Shown: piece after piece, positions 1-63,989 of the stretch
How the letters are laid out: each line of letters begins with the position of its first letter
Position numbering within the stretch: position 1 is the first letter of the stretch
Source: Escherichia coli
GTDB lineage: Bacteria; Pseudomonadota; Gammaproteobacteria; Enterobacterales; Enterobacteriaceae
NCBI RefSeq assembly: GCF_965641715.1
Contig: NZ_OZ282453.1
Length of the DNA stretch: 64,000 nt
Strand: one strand, 5' to 3'
The notes under the pieces: generated by a model
Told to the model about the DNA's origin: nothing
The model's input: the letters and a program-made list of their open reading frames with translations, nothing else
Database searches by the model: none
Made by a program: the position numbers and the translations under genes

Positions 1-374
1 GACAAGACCATGCAGAACGCAAATTTTTTGTCGGTGGACTTGGTAACTACCAGTTTGGTTTTTACATGATTAATAACTCAAGGACAGCCAATGGCACCGA
101 TGGTCAGGCGTACATGGACAATAACGGTAACTGGCTTTGTGGCTCGCAAGTTATTCCTGGCAACTATGGCAATTTTGATTCCAGATATGTGAGAGATGTT
201 CGCCTGGGTACGCGAGTTGTTCAATTGATGGCGCGTGGTGGTCGTTATGAAAAAGCCGGACACGCAATTACCGGATTAAGAATCATTGGTGAAGTAGATG
301 GCGATGATGAAGCCATCTTCAGGCCAATACAAAAATACATCAATGGCACATGGTATAACGTCGCACAGGTGTAA
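1..374 (+). CDS. Silent alternative tail-fibre C-terminal segment, promoterless; frame is open from position 3, first Met at 66
   Basis: 102-aa track ORF ends ...RPIQKYINGTWYNVAQV, parallel to the C-terminus of the expressed tail fibre (...[17 protein letters not shown]); opposite strand to the expressed fibre and followed by its own assembly gene. Confidence 0.5.
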   Translation, partial: QDHAERKFFVGGLGNYQFGFYMINNSRTANGTDGQAYMDNNGNWLCGSQVIPGNYGNFDSRYVRDVRLGTRVVQLMARGGRYEKAGHAITGLRIIGEVDGDDEAIFRPIQKYINGTWYNVAQV

Positions 375-905
375 ATGATGCAGCATTTAAAAAATATTAA
401 GTCTGGAAATCCTAAAACGAAAGAACAATATCAGCTAACAAAGAATTTTGATGTTATCTGGTTATGGTCCGAAGACGATAAAAACTGGTATGAGGAAGTG
501 AAAAACTTTCAGCCAGACACAATAAAGATTGTTTACGATGCAAATAATATTATTGTCGCCATCACTAAAGATGCCTCCACGCTTAACCCTGAAGGTTTTA
601 GCGTCGTTGAGGTTCCTGATATTACAGCCAACCGCCGCGCTGATGATTCAGGAAAGTGGATGTTTAAGGATGGAGCTGTAGTTAAACGGATTTATACGGC
701 AGACGAACAGCAACAACAAGGCGAATCACAAAAGGCCGCATTGCTTTCCGAAGCTGAATCAGTCATCCAGCCGCTGGAACGCGCTGTCAGGCTGAATATG
801 GCAACAGACGAGGAACGCACACGACTGGAAGCATGGGAACGCTACAGTGTTCTGGTCAGCCGTGTGGATACGGCAAATCCTGAATGGCCACAAAAGCCTG
901 AATAA
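375..905 (+). CDS. Tail fibre assembly protein, alternate copy
   Basis: 176 aa; N-terminus [25 protein letters not shown] is a clear paralogue of the 177-aa assembly protein at 934-1467 on the other strand. Confidence 0.8.
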
Positions 906-3700: not shown

Positions 3701-4231
3701 TTAATCGTCCGGATAAATGGTAATGACTTCACCGTCGTAAGTTGCTGCCGCCGCGAAAATATCTCCCGGGATCTCCTGAATGATATTCAGCCCTGTCATG
3801 TGGCGGCTGACCGGGCGGGCATCAGCAATCAACCGCTCCATTTCCAGATACATTTCCTCCGTCACGCCACTGTCCAGCGTGCCGACTTCAACGGTAAATG
3901 TTCCCGGTTCTCCGTCGAACTCCCACCACTCAGACACGCGAATGAGGTATCCCAGCGGCTCAATGGCCCGGCGCAGTGCGCTGATGGTCCCTTTGTGTCG
4001 GTGTATCAGCCATGCATCACGAATCACCTGTCGCTTTGTCTCTTCCGGCCAGTTGCGATCCCAGCGGTCAACGGAAAATGCCCAGGCGAGATAAGGCAGC
4101 AAATGCACCGGGCAGGTGTCCGGTGACCACAGCGTGTTGAGGTCTACCGGGATGTCTGTAATGCGCGCTCCGACAGCTTCGGCGCAACGCATGAAACGGC
4201 TGGCTGATGGCGGTAACAGTGAATTACTCAT
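3701..4231 (-). CDS. Baseplate/tail protein gpI-like; start moved to internal ATG at 4231
   Basis: Track ORF 3701-4264; the sequence from MSNSLLPP... resembles P2 gpI as I recall it (LLPYLAWAFSVDRWD motif); ATG at 4231. Confidence 0.75.
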   Translation of the reverse strand: MSNSLLPPSASRFMRCAEAVGARITDIPVDLNTLWSPDTCPVHLLPYLAWAFSVDRWDRNWPEETKRQVIRDAWLIHRHKGTISALRRAIEPLGYLIRVSEWWEFDGEPGTFTVEVGTLDSGVTEEMYLEMERLIADARPVSRHMTGLNIIQEIPGDIFAAAATYDGEVITIYPDD

Positions 4232-5120
4232 TGCGCCCACCTTCGCTGATGGTGAATGACTCACAGCGCGCCGCCTGTATGTCGCTGATGGCCAGATTCT
4301 GTGTGGGTTCGATTATCTCCACGCGTTGCACACCGTGCACATGCAGTGCGGCAGCAATGGCGGACAACGCCACGTCCTGACCGATAAGCCCCTGCTCAGC
4401 CAGCCACTTCCTGAACGACGATTCAGCCGCCGCCAGAATAGGTTCGGATTCCGGGCCGGGGTAAAAGTACAGTTTTGCATTCAGCCGCCATGTCACGATT
4501 CTGGCACTCTGTACGGTCAGGCGGTCGGCCACCGGGCGGGTATCCTCTGCATTCAGAACGGCGCGAACGGTATTAAGCAACGCCTCCGTTGCTGTGCCGT
4601 CGCCCTCAGTGGACAGGATGGAAACCGTCACGTTGGCCGGAGACGGGCTGATGGCCCGCGCATCGCGCACCAGACCGCTGGCGCTGCGTGCAAAATACTC
4701 GTATGCGCCTGACGGGCCAGCAACACTCAGACCATCATACGCCCGTTGCGCCCGCAGTCTCAGCGAGGTGTCGCTCTCCATCACCGCGTCGGTGGTATCC
4801 GTTGCCGGAGTGATAACCAGGCGCTTTGTGTTCATATTGCCCGCGAGGTTGTCCAGGTCTGTTCCGGTGCTGTGGCTCAACATGCAGGCGCGTGCGCCCT
4901 CGTTAACCCGCTGGCGTAACAGCATTTCACGAAACGACATGGTTTGAGCGATAACGTTCAGGGGTTCCGATTCCAGCTCCAGCGCGGCGGAGACGGCTTC
5001 ACGCTGTTCGGCGGGATAAGCCGCAATCATCATGGCCTTTGTGTCAGCCAGAATTGCTTCAAAGTCAGGCTCCGCGATGATGGCGGGTTCCGGTAACTGG
5101 GAAAGGTCAACGGCAGGCAT
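4224..5120 (-). CDS. Baseplate assembly protein gpJ-like
   Basis: 298 aa; position between W and I and size match P2 gpJ. Confidence 0.8.
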   Translation of the reverse strand: MPAVDLSQLPEPAIIAEPDFEAILADTKAMMIAAYPAEQREAVSAALELESEPLNVIAQTMSFREMLLRQRVNEGARACMLSHSTGTDLDNLAGNMNTKRLVITPATDTTDAVMESDTSLRLRAQRAYDGLSVAGPSGAYEYFARSASGLVRDARAISPSPANVTVSILSTEGDGTATEALLNTVRAVLNAEDTRPVADRLTVQSARIVTWRLNAKLYFYPGPESEPILAAAESSFRKWLAEQGLIGQDVALSAIAAALHVHGVQRVEIIEPTQNLAISDIQAARCESFTISEGGRNE

Positions 5121-7784: not shown

Positions 7785-8108
7785 TTATTCATCTCCCTTT
7801 TGGGTTATGCGGTTAAAGGCGGCAATGATCTTGTCGCGTGCTTTTTCTGCGCCCATAAAACCGATAGATGCGCCGAAAAACGTCACGGCATCTTCAGGAA
7901 CTCCGAAGAAGCGCAACGACCCGGCCACGGCCATGGCAAGAACGCCGCACGCCAGCGATCCCGTTACGGTCTGAACCAGCGTTCGTCCGTCATAAAGACT
8001 CATCAGCGCGGAAATGCTGACTGCCGCGCCTGCTGCATACACCGTTGGCAGGTGGTCAAAGAGCCACGCAATAACCTGCTCTGTGATCCCTGTTTGAATA
8101 GTGCTCAC
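7785..8108 (-). CDS. Holin (class I-like); start proposed at GTG 8108 after GGGGGAG
   Basis: Track ORF 7785-8327 overlaps gene X in another frame; internal GTG at 8108 with upstream Shine-Dalgarno gives a 107-aa product with about three hydrophobic segments. Confidence 0.5.
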   Translation of the reverse strand: MSTIQTGITEQVIAWLFDHLPTVYAAGAAVSISALMSLYDGRTLVQTVTGSLACGVLAMAVAGSLRFFGVPEDAVTFFGASIGFMGAEKARDKIIAAFNRITQKGDE

Positions 8109-8110
8109 TA

Positions 8111-8317
8111 CTACTCCCCCCACAACTGAATCATTTCTCGTTTCTTCTTCTCCGGCTCCGGCATCTCCACGTCCTGCCCGGGGTCCAGAAATACCTGCTG
8201 ACAGAGTCCGGGGTTGGCATCCAGCACCTTTTCGGTGACGCCCTGCGTCGTGCCGTAGTACCGGAAACAGAGCGAATCCACGGTGTCGCCTTCCAGTGCC
8301 TTCACTTTCATCAGCAC
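8111..8317 (-). CDS. Tail protein X-like
   Basis: 68 aa; ...LEGDTVDSLCFRYYG... pattern resembles P2 gpX as I recall it; position between L and holin. Confidence 0.7.
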   Translation of the reverse strand: MLMKVKALEGDTVDSLCFRYYGTTQGVTEKVLDANPGLCQQVFLDPGQDVEMPEPEKKKREMIQLWGE

Positions 8318-8805
8318 AACTCCGCAAAGATTCGCGGTCGTCCCAGAATGTCAGAGATGGCCCAGCTCACATCGCGCCACAAATCCGATGTCTGTATATC
8401 CAGTGCGTCCGCCCGGCGGTCGCCCTTATCCGTTGTGTCCGCATCGCGGTAACGCTCCAGAATCAGGGCGCGTGTGGCGGTATAAACGGCATTGCGCCAG
8501 TGCCAGAGATTGACGCTTTCTCCGTTAATTACGGGTGCCGGAACATCGGCCAGCGTCTGGTGGCCAGCCGCCTGCTGTTCCTGCTGCCACGCTTCCAGCT
8601 CGCGGGTAACGTGTGCCACGGCCCCGGTGGCGGTATGCAGCAGGCGGGAGGTGGTCACACGGCCCGGCAGTCGTATCGCCAGACGCAGCTCACGCAGCAC
8701 AATATCCGGCCAGAATGCGCCCGCTGAAATACGGGTATCACCATCATCGGTATCGGTGATGTCGTCCTCTGCGGGGCCGGGGTTGGTTCTGGCAACCATA
8801 CTCAT
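8311..8805 (-). CDS. Head completion protein gpL-like; start moved to ATG 8805
   Basis: Track ORF 8311-8814 starts at GTG; the ATG at 8805 is preceded by AGGAG; position after M. Confidence 0.7.
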   Translation of the reverse strand: MSMVARTNPGPAEDDITDTDDGDTRISAGAFWPDIVLRELRLAIRLPGRVTTSRLLHTATGAVAHVTRELEAWQQEQQAAGHQTLADVPAPVINGESVNLWHWRNAVYTATRALILERYRDADTTDKGDRRADALDIQTSDLWRDVSWAISDILGRPRIFAELC

Positions 8806-17783: not shown

Positions 17784-17890
17784 GGATTTTTAAATCCCGC
17801 TTTTGCCTGTTTTGTGCGCGCTTCATATATCGCGGCACGTTTTTTGCTCATTTATGGGATTTGTGAATCCCGTTTCTGTCTGTTTTTTGT
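17784..17890. repeat. Two imperfect 33-bp direct repeats, each with a GGGATT/AATCCC hairpin and T-run, upstream of parM and overlapping the 3' end of gene A
   Basis: GGATTTTTAAATCCCGCTTTTGCCTGTTTTGTG (17784-17816) and GGATTTGTGAATCCCGTTTCTGTCTGTTTTTTGT (17857-17890). Confidence 0.5.
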
Positions 17891-20645
17891 TTCCACTGGT
17901 CAGGCCACCCCGCAGCAGGTCTGCTTTGCGGCTGGCGCGTTCAGTGGTTTCACTGATTCTCTGTGCGTGCTCTGCGTCGCGGATGGCGCGCAGCATGTCA
18001 GAAAGCACGGTAACGGGTGTTTTCATGGTGTTCTGGTCCTGCTGAAGTGTGGATGCCAGGCGTGCGGCGGCTTCAGGGTCTGATGCCCCCAGCTGTGCCA
18101 GATAGCTGGCGACCGGGTTATGGCGGATCTCCGTGCTGCTTACGCCATGATTACGGCTCAGGCGCTGCCAGAGCTGCGTGATTCGGCTGTCCGGGCGGGT
18201 ATCCGGTTTGCGTACAATTTCAAATCCCTGCGGTGCAATGATGCTGCCGTCAACGTACAGACTGCCGCCCCGTAACAGGTGCTGCATCTGTTGTTCACCG
18301 ATATGCAGGCCGAGAGATTCAGCAGACTCCCGCCATTCTTTAGCGAGTAATTCGTGGTTATCAGGCAAAGGCCGTGGCTGTTTGCGGCTCTGTGTCCAGC
18401 TCTGCATTTCATCACTGCTGTTTTTTGCCTGTTTGTCACGAAGCGAACGCATCAGCGCCCGGCGTTCGTGCCGTTTCAGTGAGCGCATCCATTCGTTCAC
18501 GTCAACGCCGTCAGGAAGCTGCGGCCACGGTGCTGGCCGTTCTTTCGACTGTTCTGTCCCGCTGTTGCCTGTTTCCTGTACACGGGGACAGTTATTGCCA
18601 CGAGTCCAAGGGGCGGCAGGGCCGCCCTGAAGGTCAAAACCATTTTCGCGGGCGCTGTCTTCCGTTTCCGGTTTACGTCTTACCAGTTTCCAGTTATCCG
18701 GATGCGTGCACACACGGGAGGATTCCCCGATGAGTGGTGACCAGATCCCGTAAATCTGTACGCTCTGTTCGCCGTAATCATTCAGCTCATCTGCGAGGTC
18801 GTAGGCGGTGCGAATCAGGTAGTCTTTGCGTGGAACAAGTACGCCGCCCTGTTTTTCAATGTAGGTGGCAAAACACCCGGCATCGGCGGCAGCGAGTACC
18901 GCATCCATTGCGTCATCTTTCAGTCGTTGCGGGCCTTCCGGGTTGCGTGCCATCTGGCTGGCAAGGCGGCGCAGTTCACGCCACACCTGACGGGAGGGGA
19001 TGCCAAAGAACTGGAACTGGCGGACCCGATGAAGGCGCGCCCAGCCGATGGCGCGCTCCACACTCTCGGCCATTGATTTTCCGGTTTCGTGGTCAACGCG
19101 TGGCTTGCCCGTTTTCGGGTCGATGCCATCCACGGCGCGGCTGTCCAGGTTCTTTCCGATGTAGGTCGCGATATAGCTGGTTGGTGTGCCTTTTGAGCCG
19201 TCGACATACTCCGCCTTAAAGCGCGGAGTAATATCATTGCCCAGCTCGTGGCGGTCTTCCTGAATGGCAATATCGCGGGTGATGGCCACGATGCTGTCGA
19301 TTTCTTCCGGATGAGCAAAGACCATCATATGCCAGTGCACGGTGCCGTCATGGTGAGGCTCCACCGTGCGGATGCCATACCAGCGAAGACCGTCGCGGTT
19401 CAGTTTTTTGCGGACCGCCGCAAAAAACGTGTTAACCAGGTAATCGCTGGAGTCGCGCATGGTGGCCCCGTTCCATTTGGGATTCGGATGACCGTTCTCT
19501 GTTGTGGCGTGGTATTTTGACGGGCAGGTGACAGTCAGAAACACCGCTTTGTCGCCACGGGCTTCGGCCAGAAGTTCCAGCCCCTTCATGGTGGCCATCA
19601 TTTCTGCCTTACGGTGAACCGGGTTACTTACTCCCGCGTAATACACCGTCTCGAGATCAATCGTGAACCCGTCTTCATTTTCCAGCATGAAACTTTTCAG
19701 GAAATCGCGTGTTTTCTCGCGCTGTGCGCGAAACTCGCTTAACGCGTCCTGGCTCAGATAGGGCGATGTTTTTCTGGAAACCAGACAGGCGGCGCGGAGT
19801 TGTTCTTCTCTCCACTCGCAACGTAACAGCCACAGTTTGCGTTTCCACCATTCTGCACAGGTCAGGCGAAGGATTGCGCCCGGCAGCAGCTCCGTGTCCG
19901 GTTCGTTCCTCTGGTCTTTGTCTGTTGTCAGTGCGTCATAATGTGGAGGCATGGCGTGCAGGTGTAACGCCATGCGGGCCAGCATCTGATACGCCTTCAG
20001 CGTTACATCCATGGTCAGTTCGCCATCGGTCGCGCCAAAGCCATCGCAGAGTTTTTCGAAGGTGCTGCTGAACATCGCCGCCGTCATGGTGGCCAGTGTC
20101 TGTATCTGGTGTTTGTTGAGCTGCGGCAGGTAAAGCAAATCGTCCAGGCGTTCGCGTCCGGCAAGGGAGCGATAACCCTGTGTCAGCCAGCGGTGATCGG
20201 TGCGCTCCAGACGTTCGAATATTTTGCGCAGGTTTCCGCGCGCGTAGCGTTCAGCCTGCCAGCTCTTTTTGCCTTTCTGACGATCGGCTTCCTGTTTTTT
20301 GCGCAGGAAGGAGAGGTGGCGAATAAGCGGATCGCGCAGATAGGACGGCAGCAGGCGCAGCGAGGCCATGGCTTCATCCACCGCGCCGCGTGCCTGTTTT
20401 CTGGCATCTCCTGCCAGTGTGATGGTTTTGTCCTGTTTTTCCTGTGCGTCCAGGCTTTTATTAATCAGGTTGCCCAGCGGCGTTGCGGAGAACGCCGCAT
20501 CAGCCATTTCCTGGCGGTGCTCGTTCTCTACCCGGTAGGCATCCAGCCAGGAGGAAAGCGCGGATTCAGGAGCGGGGATCCCCGTTCCTTCACGCCCCAC
20601 TGCGTGGCGCGGTTGTTGCCAGTCCCTGATGTACTCTGCCGTCAT
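17823..20645 (-). CDS. Replication initiation protein (P2 gpA-like rolling-circle endonuclease)
   Basis: 940 aa; P2 A position; HUH-like motif ...HHDGTVHWHMMVF...; translationally coupled to the upstream 121-aa ORF. Confidence 0.65.
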   Translation of the reverse strand: MTAEYIRDWQQPRHAVGREGTGIPAPESALSSWLDAYRVENEHRQEMADAAFSATPLGNLINKSLDAQEKQDKTITLAGDARKQARGAVDEAMASLRLLPSYLRDPLIRHLSFLRKKQEADRQKGKKSWQAERYARGNLRKIFERLERTDHRWLTQGYRSLAGRERLDDLLYLPQLNKHQIQTLATMTAAMFSSTFEKLCDGFGATDGELTMDVTLKAYQMLARMALHLHAMPPHYDALTTDKDQRNEPDTELLPGAILRLTCAEWWKRKLWLLRCEWREEQLRAACLVSRKTSPYLSQDALSEFRAQREKTRDFLKSFMLENEDGFTIDLETVYYAGVSNPVHRKAEMMATMKGLELLAEARGDKAVFLTVTCPSKYHATTENGHPNPKWNGATMRDSSDYLVNTFFAAVRKKLNRDGLRWYGIRTVEPHHDGTVHWHMMVFAHPEEIDSIVAITRDIAIQEDRHELGNDITPRFKAEYVDGSKGTPTSYIATYIGKNLDSRAVDGIDPKTGKPRVDHETGKSMAESVERAIGWARLHRVRQFQFFGIPSRQVWRELRRLASQMARNPEGPQRLKDDAMDAVLAAADAGCFATYIEKQGGVLVPRKDYLIRTAYDLADELNDYGEQSVQIYGIWSPLIGESSRVCTHPDNWKLVRRKPETEDSARENGFDLQGGPAAPWTRGNNCPRVQETGNSGTEQSKERPAPWPQLPDGVDVNEWMRSLKRHERRALMRSLRDKQAKNSSDEMQSWTQSRKQPRPLPDNHELLAKEWRESAESLGLHIGEQQMQHLLRGGSLYVDGSIIAPQGFEIVRKPDTRPDSRITQLWQRLSRNHGVSSTEIRHNPVASYLAQLGASDPEAAARLASTLQQDQNTMKTPVTVLSDMLRAIRDAEHAQRISETTERASRKADLLRGGLTSGNKKQTETGFTNPINEQKTCRDI

Positions 20646-20651
20646 AGTGAT

Positions 20652-21017
20652 TTACTTCGTCATGCCATTCAGGGTGTCGCGGCAGACTGTAGCCAGCCGC
20701 TGAATTTCCAGCACGGTGTCTTCTGTGTCGGCATGGCGATGTGTGATGCGGATGCTGTCGGCAATCACATCGACGATTGCAGAGGATGGGCGCTGGTAAA
20801 TGCCAATAACGGACGGGGTGCCACCTTCAATGCGGTAAAGCCTGTAATTTCCCTCGTGGCTGTCAATCATGTAGCGACCATCAATAACAATCTTTCCGTC
20901 AGCGAGCTGCGGTACAGGCAGGGATTTCAGGTACATGTCATAACGATCACGCACGCGAGCGGCAAGATCACGTTCTGTGTTGAGCAGGTATTCAAGAAAG
21001 TCGTTGGCGAGAATCAT
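20652..21017 (-). CDS. Hypothetical early protein
   Basis: 121-aa ORF with ATG and upstream AGAGGA; ends 7 nt before the A start. Confidence 0.5.
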   Translation of the reverse strand: MILANDFLEYLLNTERDLAARVRDRYDMYLKSLPVPQLADGKIVIDGRYMIDSHEGNYRLYRIEGGTPSVIGIYQRPSSAIVDVIADSIRITHRHADTEDTVLEIQRLATVCRDTLNGMTK

Positions 21018-21089
21018 TGCGGCAATCCTCTTGTTACAGATGTGCGAAGGCCTCCCGCCGCAAGGTGCAGGAAAGGCCCGGAACAGGAG

Positions 21090-21320
21090 TTAATGGAGTT
21101 TGTTTTGCTGCTGGATGAGCTGTTGAAGCTCGTGCAGATCATCCGCCAGATAGCTGAAAACAGAGGCGGAATAAATGTTTGATAGTGCGTGGCTGCGCTC
21201 ATGCAGCATATTGATGTGCATGATTTGCGCGACGCGTGATGCGCGGGAAAGTCTGCGGTTGATTTCAGTCTGGATGTGACGACGCTCCGCGATAGCGCGG
21301 TGTGGTTTGCGGTTTGCCAT
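21090..21320 (-). CDS. Hypothetical basic small protein
   Basis: 76-aa ORF (MANRKPHRAIAERR...); preferred over the overlapping low-complexity 205-aa ORF in another frame. Confidence 0.4.
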   Translation of the reverse strand: MANRKPHRAIAERRHIQTEINRRLSRASRVAQIMHINMLHERSHALSNIYSASVFSYLADDLHELQQLIQQQNKLH

Positions 21321-21642
21321 GGTGTGGCCCCTTGTGTAGTAAGTTGTGAAAACTCACCATCCAGAGCTGCGAAACTGTGGGTGGCGAGACGTACGAGGTT
21401 CGCAGTACCGGCTACACAAGAACCCGGCCCGACCGAAGTCGGCCCCGTACGCCCCGCCATAATTCTGACGCGAAAAAAACGTGGCAATACAGTACGCACA
21501 AAAAAACCGCTGGCGCGGTTGTGCGCTTGTGTAGTCAGCAGGCTGCGAAACCCGGCACCCGTTTTGTGAGGTGCAGCGGAAATGTAACCTGACTGATTGC
21601 GGCATGGCAAGCGGTTTTTTTGTGTGTGCATGTTCTGGTTTC

Positions 21643-21942
21643 TTAGTGGTTCAGAAAAAAATCAAAAACCTTGTCAATGCGTTGCAGCAGCTCTTGCTGT
21701 ATTGCTTCCGGCGTTTCCGGTTCGCCTGGCGCCTCCAACGTCGCGCAGAAATCCTCGATTTCATGACGGAGCGTCAGGCGAATGGCGAGAGGTGTGGTTC
21801 TGGCGTGCTCCAGCTCATCCAGCAGCGCCAGCACAGCAGACGGCGAGAGCATTGCGCGAAACGCCAGTAATTTTTGAGGCGTTGCCATTCGTTGCAGGTC
21901 AGTCGCCAGTTCGCGTAATTCCTGGTGGTTGATGGCGCTCAT
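21643..21942 (-). CDS. Hypothetical early protein
   Basis: 99-aa ORF; start overlaps the stop of the upstream ORF. Confidence 0.5.
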   Translation of the reverse strand: MSAINHQELRELATDLQRMATPQKLLAFRAMLSPSAVLALLDELEHARTTPLAIRLTLRHEIEDFCATLEAPGEPETPEAIQQELLQRIDKVFDFFLNH

Positions 21943-23938: not shown

Positions 23939-24226
23939 CTAAAGTCCCAGCCACAACAACCATGCGTCGCGGCGTTCTTTCGGTTGCTCAAAAAACGCTT
24001 TGCGCATGCCTTCGTTAAATGCTGGCAGATATACCCAGTTTTCTGATGCACGCGTCTTTACTGAACCTGGTTTCACAAAGTCAATTGTCGGTAGCTTTGC
24101 TGCGTCAATCATGGTTCTGACTGTGGATTCCTTGCGGCCGATCATCTTGGCGAATAGTTGATATGGCACCGCTTCAAGTGGATATGGTGCTACCTGAATG
24201 AACCCCCCAAGCTCTGATTCGCTCAT
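23939..24226 (-). CDS. cox: Cox-like regulator/excisionase
   Basis: 95 aa; PYQLFAKMIGRKESTVRTMID...LPTIDFV...NWVYLPAFNEG...RDAWLLWLGL parallels P2 Cox as I recall it; divergent from C. Confidence 0.8.
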   Translation of the reverse strand: MSESELGGFIQVAPYPLEAVPYQLFAKMIGRKESTVRTMIDAAKLPTIDFVKPGSVKTRASENWVYLPAFNEGMRKAFFEQPKERRDAWLLWLGL

Positions 24227-24339
24227 TGTGGTAATCTCCCTAATTCGTTCGAATGGCTCAAAATGGCTTATATCGGCTTATTTGAGTGTTTTTATGTTTG
24301 TGCCCGATGTGGCATGTTGCGATGGAGGATATGCCCGAT
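24227..24339. promoter_or_regulatory. Lysis-lysogeny switch region (divergent early and repressor promoters) with candidate operators
   Basis: Between cox and C; three GGCT(C/T)A repeats at exact 10-bp spacing (24255, 24265, 24275); two palindromes TGCCCGAT(G/A)TGGCAT (24301-15, 24332-46). Confidence 0.5.
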
Positions 24340-24660
24340 ATGGCATCTTTGTCAAGCATGGGTGAAAAATTTCGCCTGATTCGTGAAGCAGAAGGTATGA
24401 CCCGCCAGGAGTTTGCGGATTGTGTTGGGCTGCCTTATGGGACGGTAACTAACTATGAGGTGAGGGGGAAGCAAGTAACAGAGGGTGCCTTACTTAAGGT
24501 TACGAAACACCCTAAATTTAAGAAGTATGCTTATTGGTTATCAACAGATGAAACGATGCCGGAGGTCGGGCAAATTTCTCCGGCTCTCTCTCTTGATGGT
24601 TCCTGCAATTCGGAGGGAGATCGCGTTTCAACCGAAAAAATCCAAAAATTATCCCGCTGA
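24340..24660 (+). CDS. C-type immunity repressor (HTH); start among in-frame ATGs 24322/24331/24340
   Basis: HTH segment QEFADCVGLPYGTVTNYE and ...KYAYWLSTDETMPEVGQISPAL resemble P2 C as I recall it; same strand as int. Confidence 0.7.
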   Translation: MASLSSMGEKFRLIREAEGMTRQEFADCVGLPYGTVTNYEVRGKQVTEGALLKVTKHPKFKKYAYWLSTDETMPEVGQISPALSLDGSCNSEGDRVSTEKIQKLSR

Positions 24661-32779: not shown

Positions 32780-33230
<451 letters not shown>

Positions 33231-33917: not shown

Positions 33918-35435
33918 ATGTGCGGTATTGTCGGTATCGCCGGTGTTATGCCGGTTAACCAGTCGATTTATGATGCCTTAACGGTGCTTCAGCATCGCGG
34001 TCAGGATGCCGCCGGCATCATCACCATAGATGCCAATAACTGCTTCCGTTTGCGTAAAGCGAACGGGCTGGTGAGCGATGTATTTGAAGCTCGCCATATG
34101 CAGCGTTTGCAGGGCAATATGGGCATTGGTCATGTGCGTTACCCCACGGCTGGCAGCTCCAGCGCCTCTGAAGCGCAGCCGTTTTACGTTAACTCCCCGT
34201 ATGGCATTACGCTTGCCCACAACGGCAATCTGACCAACGCTCACGAGTTGCGTAAAAAACTGTTTGAAGAAAAACGCCGCCACATCAACACCACTTCCGA
34301 CTCGGAAATTCTGCTTAATATCTTCGCCAGCGAGCTGGACAACTTCCGCCACTACCCGCTGGAAGCCGACAACATTTTCGCCGCCATCGCTGCTACAAAC
34401 CGCTTAATCCGCGGCGCGTATGCCTGTGTGGCGATGATTATCGGCCACGGTATGGTTGCTTTCCGCGATCCAAACGGTATTCGTCCGCTGGTTCTGGGAA
34501 AACGTGATATTGACGAGAACCGCACAGAATATATGGTCGCTTCCGAAAGCGTAGCGCTCGATACGCTGGGCTTTGATTTCCTGCGTGATGTCGCGCCGGG
34601 CGAAGCGATTTACATCACTGAAGAAGGGCAGTTGTTTACCCGTCAATGTGCTGACAATCCGGTCAGCAATCCGTGCCTGTTTGAGTATGTATACTTTGCT
34701 CGCCCGGACTCGTTCATCGACAAAATTTCCGTTTACAGCGCGCGTGTGAATATGGGCACGAAACTGGGCGAGAAAATTGCCCGCGAATGGGAAGATCTGG
34801 ATATCGACGTGGTGATCCCGATCCCGGAAACCTCGTGTGATATCGCGCTGGAAATTGCTCGTATTCTGGGCAAACCGTACCGCCAGGGCTTCGTTAAAAA
34901 CCGCTATGTTGGCCGCACCTTCATCATGCCGGGCCAGCAGCTGCGTCGTAAGTCCGTGCGCCGTAAACTGAACGCCAACCGCGCCGAGTTCCGCGATAAA
35001 AACGTCCTGCTGGTCGACGACTCCATCGTCCGTGGCACCACTTCTGAGCAGATTATCGAGATGGCACGCGAAGCCGGAGCGAAGAAAGTGTACCTCGCTT
35101 CTGCGGCACCGGAAATTCGCTTCCCGAACGTTTATGGTATTGATATGCCGAGCGCCACGGAACTGATCGCTCACGGTCGCGAAGTAGATGAAATTCGCCA
35201 GATCATCGGTGCTGACGGGTTGATTTTCCAGGATCTGAACGATCTGATCGAAGCCGTTCGCGCTGAAAACCCGGATATCCAGCAGTTTGAATGCTCGGTG
35301 TTCAACGGCGTCTACGTCACCAAAGATGTTGATCAGGGCTACCTCGATTTCCTCGATACTTTACGTAATGACGACGCCAAAGCAGTGCAACGTCAGAACG
35401 AAGTGGAAAATCTCGAAATGCATAACGAAGGATGA
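33918..35435 (+). CDS. purF: Amidophosphoribosyltransferase
   Basis: 505 aa; starts MCGIVGIAG... Confidence 0.95.
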
Positions 35436-63937: not shown

Positions 63938-63989
63938 CCGAATTTCGATTAACGCTCAGTCTCTGACTGAGAAAACTGGAAGCATGCTA

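Follow-up and report, generated by a model that had tools for sequence, protein, structure and literature searches.

What is the role of a 322-bp, hairpin-rich stretch that lies between two early genes of an Escherichia coli prophage, and in which a first reading from the letters alone had seen no credible gene? We investigated this interval, positions 21321-21642 of a 64-kb stretch of contig NZ_OZ282453.1 (RefSeq assembly GCF_965641715.1; 64,000 nucleotides, hereafter the window). It belongs to the early operon of a P88-like prophage of E. coli (Xuanwuvirus, P2 family, Peduoviridae). The operon is read from the minus strand, on which the features described below lie unless stated otherwise. 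Taken together, the evidence makes it highly probable that the interval is the regulatory core of an RNA immunity cassette of the type described in phages P4 and P1, placed in the early operon of this prophage. The interval holds two small RNAs (sRNAs), a C4/CI-type antisense RNA and an IsrK-like leader RNA. They are followed by a 76-amino-acid (aa) gene related to epsilon of P4, and a long open frame that we term Eta-like runs across both RNAs and this gene.

The sequence-only reading had suggested, among other possibilities, an sRNA or an anti-termination or processing structure, and had proposed an Rfam scan together with folding and covariance analysis. Scans of the locus and of the whole window returned the same two matches, both full length, above their gathering scores and on the minus strand. 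For the C4 family (RF01695), the match at 21464..21377 covers model positions 1-87 of 87 and scores 83.2 bits (gathering score 45; E 7e-16); for the isrK family (RF01394), the match at 21574..21500 covers model positions 1-77 of 77 and scores 64.1 bits (gathering score 50). The narrower c4-a1b1 model, which overlaps the IsrK match, stayed at 20.9 bits, below its gathering score of 46.7. Both suggestions were right in substance: the interval encodes two small RNAs of described families, and their counterparts in P1, P4 and Gifsy-1 of Salmonella arise from a single leader transcript by termination or processing and regulate the genes that follow.

By homology to the P1 annotation, the mature C4 RNA is predicted to span 21458..21380, about 79 nt. 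Its architecture comprises a 17-bp closing stem, a UUCG hairpin (21442..21429), a second hairpin whose loop presents a segment termed b′, a junction segment termed a′, and a 3′ tail ACC. The minimum-free-energy fold is the family structure, with -47.7 kcal/mol and z = -4.46, and none of 200 shuffled sequences folded as well. We counted covariation on an alignment of 20 diverse sequences. Each of the three C4 helices was 100% paired across these relatives, and seven pairs of the 17-bp stem had changed on both sides. For the internal helices of both RNAs together, 98% of the alignment cells were paired and 14 of the 44 pairs had changed on both sides, a score that none of 500 shuffles reached; partners slid out of register gave 37-43%. 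The 5′ junction AAUUAU|GG and the 3′ tail ACC are conserved, as in P1. In P1 and P4, RNase P frees the mature RNA of about 77 nt from a longer transcript.

The motifs listed by the sequence-only reading, which we located by script on both strands, were all present where they had been placed, and they could be assigned to parts of the RNAs. The plus-strand sequence CCGACCGAAGTCGG (21429-21442) corresponds on the minus strand (21442..21429) to the UUCG-tetraloop hairpin of C4, and the CGTACG palindrome is part of the 17-bp closing stem. The element that resembled a terminator forms a hairpin on the minus strand, AACCGCGCCAGCGGTT (21520..21505), with T7 (U7 in the RNA) after it. The pair CTGCGAA/TTCGCAG had been taken for a 7-bp hairpin stem; the two arms are complementary, yet they do not form a simple stem, as one is a single-stranded segment of C4 and the other is its target just downstream. 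CTTGTGTAG has three copies in the 64-kb window, all of them within the interval (plus strand at 21331 and 21526, inverted at 21412), compared with 0.29 expected, and none of 100 shuffles yielded three. Similarly, GCTGCGAAAC occurs twice (21366 and 21542) compared with 0.20 expected, and 2 of 100 shuffles yielded two copies. These repeats are the recognition code of the RNA system.

The code is built from two C4 segments and four sites that complement them. Segment b′ (CUUGUGUAG, 21420..21412) forms the loop of the second C4 hairpin, and a′ (CUGCGAA, 21405..21399) lies in the C4 junction. Two of the complementary sites are located within the IsrK-like RNA (a1, UUCGCAG, 21549..21543; b1, CUACACAAG, 21534..21526), and the other two in the mRNA leader downstream of C4 (a2, UUCGCAG, 21373..21367; b2, CUACACAAG, 21339..21331). 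All four are perfect complements of a′ (7 nt) or b′ (9 nt). Site b2 overlaps the Shine-Dalgarno sequence AAGGGG (21333..21328) of the 76-aa gene and is 10 nt from its ATG (21320). The duplexes of C4 with a2/b2 have calculated energies of -10.9 and -8.8 kcal/mol.

Across relatives, the three sets of sites change in concert. On the 20-sequence alignment, 97.5% of the cells were paired between C4 and a1/b1, with 13 of the 16 pairs changed on both sides, and 85.9% between C4 and a2/b2, with 11 of 16 changed on both sides; in neither case did any of 500 shuffles reach the score. Slid partners of a1/b1 were paired in 28-51% of cells and shuffled a2/b2 in 63%. The lower value for a2/b2 arises because the lambdoid rows of the alignment contain register shifts. 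We scanned IMG/VR for exact matches to a 21-nt C4 core, which gave more than 80 further loci and a set of 86 unique sequences. These fall into 17 a′/b′ specificity types, and in nearly every type the sites in IsrK and in the leader match those in C4. Between cognate partners, the complementary stretch has a median length of 9 nt (b) or 7 nt (a); between non-cognate partners the median is 4-5 nt, and fewer than 3% of these combinations reach 7 nt. Within the P88-type set, 33 of the 48 columns of the six recognition sites are variable, compared with 40 of 206 elsewhere. Such a pattern is expected of RNA-RNA immunity specificity, and not of a protein or a DNA site. Among the IMG/VR loci and the window, b′ and a′ were also seen to recombine independently, the same b′ occurring with three different a′ and vice versa.

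The IsrK-like (or seqA-like) leader sRNA, 21574..21500, consists of a 5′ hairpin, a1 in a hairpin loop, b1, and the intrinsic terminator at 21520..21505, for which a terminator scan reports a 6-bp stem followed by U7. A consensus scan predicts an internal promoter just upstream (PisrK-like, 21621..21581), with a -35 hexamer TTGCCA (21610..21605), an 18-nt spacer, a -10 hexamer TACATT (21586..21581) and a predicted start at G 21574. The -10 hexamer ends 7 nt ahead of the first base of the isrK model, and an A7 tract (21621..21615) upstream of the -35 is a possible UP element. Although the flanks diverge, none of the 20 aligned relatives departs from TTG in the -35, TA...T in the -10 or G at +1. 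The homologous promoter of Gifsy-1 is active by experiment (PMC4825925), and that of P1 is annotated in the P1 record as P1c4/P51b. A search for C-repressor operators near the internal promoter found no word of at least 8 nt common to the Pe/Pc switch region (24180-24320) and 21570-21660. We also observed that CACAAAAAAACCGC (21625..21612, minus strand), just upstream of the -35, is a 14-nt perfect complement of GCGGUUUUUUUGUG (21509..21496), which represents the 3′ half of the IsrK terminator and its U-tract. A role of CACAAAAAAACCGC as an anti-terminator in long transcripts was considered and set aside as kinetically implausible; the reading of the A7 tract as an UP element fits equally well.

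At the 5′ edge of C4, an AUG (21460..21458) is located within the conserved AAUUAUGG, in the Eta-like frame. Judging from the coordinates, it is a possible nested start that matches orf45 of Gifsy-1, and an AUG at this edge has the same frame relative to C4 in Eta of P4. A separate promoter for C4, TTGCCA-17-AATTAT (21487..21459), is unlikely: its -35 is not conserved in P88, in the lambdoid relatives or in P1, and a start 7 nt past its -10 would cut into the conserved stem. The AAUUAU is better explained as a processing junction with the nested AUG.

What would such an RNA system regulate? The 76-aa gene whose Shine-Dalgarno sequence is overlapped by b2 (21320..21090) encodes a protein of the Pfam Derepression family (PF25738, residues 12-67, E 8.1e-8). 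Its product shares 29% identity over 66 aa with epsilon of P4 (BLASTP, E 4e-9), which is itself a full-length member of PF25738 (E 1e-50), and the P88 orthologue is named 'derepression protein' in RefSeq. We compared coding signatures over 38 clean alleles. The 76-aa frame has 29/25/52 variable columns at codon positions 1/2/3, and 40% of its differing codons are synonymous, compared with 12-15% in the other frames (12% in the Eta-like frame). Epsilon of P4 (the E protein) is an anti-repressor that binds the C repressor of P2 (PMC2995052). By analogy, the epsilon-like gene is presumed to be the anti-repressor regulated by the cassette, and its protein may act on the phage's own C repressor, which the window carries at 24358-24660.

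The transcription unit continues with a 121-aa gene (21017..20652) and with the replication nickase gene A (20645..17823; PHROG 91, 'nicking at origin of replication'). Between 21300 and 20500, a scan of the minus strand picked up nothing that resembles a promoter or a terminator. The 121-aa gene and A are likely to be the final targets of the cassette's control. We examined whether the 121-aa protein is a homologue of P4 genes and dropped this idea, as it shows no similarity to ORF151 or ORF106 of P4; Pfam gave DUF5405 only at E 0.15, and NCBIfam gave no match. In related phages (P884B11 and P88 records, 1..426, which by identity correspond to the window below 17823), a gene annotated as a ParM-like plasmid segregation/partition protein is located directly downstream of A, which is unusual for a P2-family phage.

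The closest parallels to this layout are in P4 and P1. The immunity region of P4 contains the same two RNA families in the same order (isrK 60.8 bits, C4 74.9 bits; c4-a1b1 44.1 bits). As in the window, the RNAs of P4 lie inside a frame that matches the Pfam family Phage_ASH, starts upstream of an internal promoter and has the same phase to C4, and a gene of the epsilon/Derepression family precedes the replication gene (in P4 the order is epsilon, two small open reading frames (ORFs), alpha). CI and seqA are located inside eta, and the constitutive promoter internal to eta gives transcripts that terminate early and are processed to CI (PMC10111431). Full-length eta is translated only from the upstream promoter, coupled to the preceding gene, and this translation prevents RNA-dependent termination (PMC10111431, citing Forti et al. 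1999). The genetic repressor of P4 is an RNA and not a protein, and the Rfam C4 and isrK profiles have already been stated to detect relatives of CI and seqA (PMC10111431). The two loci differ in their setting, as P4 is a satellite with the alpha primase-helicase, whereas the window carries a full P2-family phage with the P2-type nickase A. They also differ in their dimensions: the gap between IsrK and C4 is 35 nt here and 107 nt in P4, and the distance from C4 to the epsilon start is 57 nt here and 245 nt in P4. Finally, the Eta-like frame overlaps the entire epsilon-like gene, in the +1 frame, whereas the overlap in P4 is only 8 nt.

The geometry of the recognition sites is that of the immI locus of P1/P7, which encodes a C4 RNA of RF01695 (68.8 bits in P1). 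In both, the order is a1, b1, c4, a2, b2 and then the regulated gene (icd and ant in P1). The spacing also agrees, with 66 nt from b1 to C4, a2 just past the 3′ end of C4, and 10 nt from b2 to the ATG. Both loci share the AAUUAU|GG junction, the ACC tail and a terminator-like hairpin between b1 and c4, and in both the regulated product antagonises a repressor (in our prophage by analogy to epsilon). P1 differs in that its C4 regulates icd together with ant1/ant2, whereas here the gene encodes an epsilon-type small protein. In addition, the frame across c4 of P1 closes after 14 codons, P1 has an extra promoter, P51a, controlled by C1, and its IsrK-like leader scores 35.1 bits, below the isrK gathering score.

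The lambdoid Rha/anti-repressor loci of Stx2a_WGPS2, ST64B, mEp460 and 1720a-02 share a core of IsrK, C4 and a2/b2 that is about 70% identical to that of the window. They are likewise placed in the early operon, between cII-like and replication genes, and their long frame through the RNAs overlaps the upstream stop (ATGA). There, the frame leads without a change of phase into a genuine protein of the Rha family (about 185-242 aa), whereas here it crosses a separate small gene out of phase.

Gifsy-1 of Salmonella offers a third parallel and, with it, the alternative that survives best. Downstream of isrK, at 34316..34131 of Gifsy-1, we found a full-length C4-family RNA (69 bits), 25 nt from IsrK and followed by an anti-repressor-like gene. 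Transcription from an internal promoter meets a leaky terminator, which results in a short sRNA and a read-through mRNA, and an AUG lies at the 5′ edge of the C4-shaped segment; the window shares this layout. From the coordinates, the orf45/STnc1160 segment appears to lie at the position of this C4 homologue. Gifsy-1 differs in its downstream gene, AnrP, which is of another type; orf45 stops before anrP and is coupled to it; and the locus adjoins the Q antiterminator gene instead of a replication gene. The orf45 frame of Gifsy-1 begins 107 nt into the transcript of isrK (nt 107), and its translation is required for the expression of anrP (PMC4825925). IsrK binds Hfq, and when supplied in trans it raised anrP translation more than 100-fold by pairing with the orf45 region (PMC4825925). 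The published model stresses activation by IsrK; it mentions the analogy to P4 seqA/CI and a processed STnc1160, and leaves the C4 homology unnamed (PMC4825925). A 2025 review of phage sRNAs gives IsrK and c4 as unrelated entries.

Our cassette could, according to this model of Gifsy-1, be mainly an induction trigger, in which the IsrK-like RNA acts in trans on the read-through transcript and switches on translation of an orf45-like frame and the anti-repressor, and the C4 shape is mainly a cis structure of the mRNA. The homology and layout of the IsrK-like RNA agree with such a role, as does the conserved AUG at the 5′ edge of C4, and in Gifsy-1 the strong effect of IsrK in trans is joined by a requirement for the isrK promoter in spontaneous induction (PMC4825925). 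However, the anti-repressor-like gene of our prophage has its own Shine-Dalgarno sequence, covered by b2, and is out of frame with the orf45-like frame. Moreover, the geometry is identical to that of P1, whose C4 is a trans-acting repressor, and the modular, freely assorting a′/b′ types are those expected of a diffusible immunity determinant. We therefore regard the trigger as an improbable account of the locus when taken as a replacement for a C4 repressor, and note that the two are not mutually exclusive.

If C4 acts as a repressor RNA, as we favor, what is the long frame for? The Eta-like frame (21631..21014, 205 codons) spans the internal promoter, IsrK, C4, a2/b2 and the entire epsilon-like gene, the last of these in the +1 frame. 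Pfam Phage_ASH (PF10554) matches its residues 16-109 (E 1.4e-5), which is exactly the RNA-coding part. Eta of P4 (ORF199) is likewise an intact frame, and its Phage_ASH match (residues 22-146, E 8e-23) covers the seqA-CI stretch. The common match probably reflects the shared RNA-coding nucleotides, because a direct BLASTP comparison of the Eta-like frame with P4 Eta finds no protein similarity. The frame is open in 18 of the 20 aligned relatives. In 97 of 99 loci it reaches 168 nt or more beyond the C4 AUG on the upstream side, and in 95 of 99 its ATG precedes the -35 hexamer, with varied upstream genes. In the window, this ATG follows the stop of the 99-aa gene by 11 nt and precedes the -35 by 21 nt. 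Among relatives, it adjoins or overlaps the stop of the preceding gene, whichever that is, at offsets of -9, -11, -15 or +4 (ATGA). At its other end, the frame closes in an ATGA (21017..21014 in the window) that overlaps the start of the next gene, an arrangement found in 66 of 71 unique P88-type loci, which include four divergent alleles of that next gene.

These properties invite the simpler view that the region is protein-coding, with a 205-aa 'Ash family' protein or 'transcriptional regulator' as its product and the repeats and hairpins as incidental features. The frame is indeed annotated in this way in some RefSeq E. coli genomes and in P884B11 (NC_049391, 4311..3694, a 205-aa 'transcriptional regulator', with the 76-aa epsilon-like gene omitted). 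The Phage_ASH match, the openness of the frame in almost all relatives and its operon-like packing between an upstream stop and the ATGA all speak for it. Nevertheless, its three codon positions vary to the same extent (24/24/25 variable columns), and its amino-acid identity of 0.81 is no better than the 0.81 and 0.80 of the other frames. Over the epsilon-like gene, synonymous changes are as scarce in it as given above for the out-of-phase frames, in contrast to the 76-aa frame. Variation is instead concentrated in the recognition sites and is compensatory among three distant sites. In P1, moreover, C4 works although the frame is shut after 14 codons, and in P4 the repressor is an RNA (PMC10111431). 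A purely coding role is thus very unlikely.

The statement of the sequence-only reading that no credible ORF is present needs to be divided accordingly: a 205-codon frame is open here and in relatives, while its amino-acid sequence is unconstrained. The same reading had held that a conserved coding frame in relatives would refute its proposal. The conserved frame that was found does not refute it, because no coding signature is seen in this frame and compensatory change is strong in the RNA pairings. We infer from frame conservation without amino-acid constraint that the Eta-like frame is kept for the transit of ribosomes and not for its peptide, and it probably forms part of the mechanism. 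Over the epsilon-like gene, the +1 frame is open in all 38 distinct alleles and the +2 frame in none. The openness of an overlapping non-coding frame may point to selection against stop codons.

How widespread is the cassette, and is it still in use? Six phage records, including Xuanwuvirus P884B11 and PhiR44_2, match the 322 bp at 99-100% identity, and phage P88 and Citrobacter phage phiSM (P2 family, Peduoviridae) match them at about 87%. A core of about 190 nt is about 70% identical in phages of the lambdoid Stx, ST64B and mEp460 types. In each of the six related phage loci that were scanned, IsrK and C4 occur together, 24-35 nt apart, and the module or a relative is present in 1800 of 5426 complete E. 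coli genomes. An inert recombination remnant, that is, P4-like or lambdoid sequence left in a P2-like prophage and devoid of current function, would account for the mosaic character of the locus: similarity to P88 and phiSM ends at about 21624, the upstream genes differ among relatives, and close epsilon-like homologues among isolated phages occur only in the P88-like group. A remnant would, however, hardly keep perfect three-way complementarity in 17 specificity types, a promoter core, terminator and stems that are invariant or compensated, and a presence in so many complete genomes, and P88 phages that carry the cassette are viable and were recovered after mitomycin C; we consider this explanation scarcely tenable. 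The suggestions of an origin-like DNA element or a small inserted, repeat-bounded mobile element find no support beyond the direct and inverted repeats within 320 bp and can be given practically no weight, as these repeats are the loops and targets of a described RNA family that covary as RNA pairs, including G-U pairs, with the C4 loops, and are not insertion scars, and the locus has neither target-site duplications nor a transposase.

Some observations weigh against the RNA immunity cassette, or at least against parts of it. Taken by itself, the IsrK segment has a fold no more stable than those of shuffled sequences (z = -1.16). In Gifsy-1, the constitutively expressed STnc1160/orf45 region enhanced the effect of IsrK instead of countering it (PMC4825925), and the logic by which C4 is the repressor is therefore not established for every member of the family. 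The probability that the Eta-like frame is open over the epsilon-like gene by chance is appreciable, between 0.05 and 0.29 per allele, and the alleles are related by descent. The epsilon-like alleles, the 14 clusters of C repressors and the C4 types assort almost freely, and one epsilon allele occurs with nine C-repressor clusters of less than 80% identity. This near-free assortment fits two independent immunity determinants and lends no support to an allele-specific partnership of epsilon and C. Together with the mixing of b′ and a′, the independence from C-repressor type suggests a modular exchange of RNA immunity determinants. The roles assigned to the cassette in this phage rest on homology throughout.

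With these points in mind, the cassette could operate as follows. Family membership, structure, three-way complementarity and covariation, geometry, homologies and frame conservation are observed in this locus and its relatives, and to them we add processing, translational repression, termination control and anti-termination by translation as seen in experiments on P1, P4 and Gifsy-1. In the lysogen, the internal promoter (around 21610..21581) would drive the leader, and most transcripts would end at the IsrK terminator, giving an IsrK-like sRNA with a1 and b1. Read-through transcripts would be processed to C4 of about 79 nt. Its b′ and a′ would then pair with b2 and a2 on the mRNA and block translation of the epsilon-like gene, because b2 overlaps the Shine-Dalgarno sequence. 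Polarity or premature termination might also limit the 121-aa gene and A. For de-repression, the IsrK-like RNA, which carries the same sites, could titrate C4 or refold the leader, as in Gifsy-1. In the lytic state, transcripts from the C-repressed early promoter (near 24.3 kb) would contain the Eta-like start at 21631. By moving across the terminator, C4 and its targets, ribosomes would keep transcription from terminating and C4 from pairing, and the ATGA stop-start overlap would pass them to the gene preceding A, opening the way to A.

One extension of this scheme would be a gate before the replication gene of P88-like phages that works by the choice of frame. Early transcripts would be read in a transit frame whose peptide is irrelevant and passed on by the ATGA, and transcripts from the internal promoter, which lack that start, would give the immunity RNAs, and the epsilon-like protein only if C4 is titrated. 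We put this forward tentatively, as a possibility that we ourselves regard as doubtful. If true, a phage of the helper family would gain a second, RNA-based immunity with freely exchangeable specificities, as well as its own copy of the weapon that the satellite P4 uses against P2 repressors. If the more general mechanism holds, the C repressor and the C4 RNA are independent determinants of immunity in P88-like prophages, which would also carry an RNA-gated replication gene and an epsilon-type anti-repressor; these features bear on induction, superinfection immunity and helper-satellite conflict.

The RNA families, the recognition among three sites and anti-termination through a nested frame are all already described, and we claim no new principle. 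The literature searched contained no description of the cassette in P88-like phages or Xuanwuvirus. Two features are peculiar to this locus: the transit frame covers the epsilon-like gene completely and out of phase, and the cassette stands before a P2-type replication gene. Its value lies in annotation and in the joining of literatures, as c4 of P1, CI/seqA of P4 and IsrK/orf45/STnc1160 of Gifsy-1 have been treated separately, yet they represent one homologous cassette.

Public records do not agree on how the locus is annotated. Among the 40 RefSeq records listed, the locus is unannotated or labeled 'ash family protein', 'Rha family' or 'hypothetical protein'. The record of P88 (NC_026014) has a 62-aa 'hypothetical protein' on the opposite strand inside C4/IsrK (4061..4249, plus strand), and that of phiSM leaves the interval without any annotation. 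In the P4 record, PF10554 matches the Eta frame (8767..8168) and not epsilon (8175..7888), which matches PF25738. PF10554 served as the marker for epsilon in a large survey of P4-like satellites, which took 'Ash' and epsilon to be the same (PMC8628076); this marker in fact picks up the adjacent RNA-coding frame and not epsilon. In one IMG/VR locus (IMGVR_UViG_2563366990_000002), an apparent Illumina adapter (AGATCGGAAGAGCACACGTCTGAACTCCA) is fused into the epsilon-like gene, which is probably an assembly artefact.

Elsewhere in the window, ARAGORN detected no tRNA gene over the whole 64 kb. Outside the early region of the prophage, at 32833-33176 on the plus strand, four tandem copies of naRNA4 / CssrE (RF02564, 78-83 bits) are arranged with a spacing of 91 nt. 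The plus strand also has a nuoG RNA motif (RF01748, 50.3 bits) at 63940-63982, which suggests that the window may end, on its right side, in or near the nuo operon.

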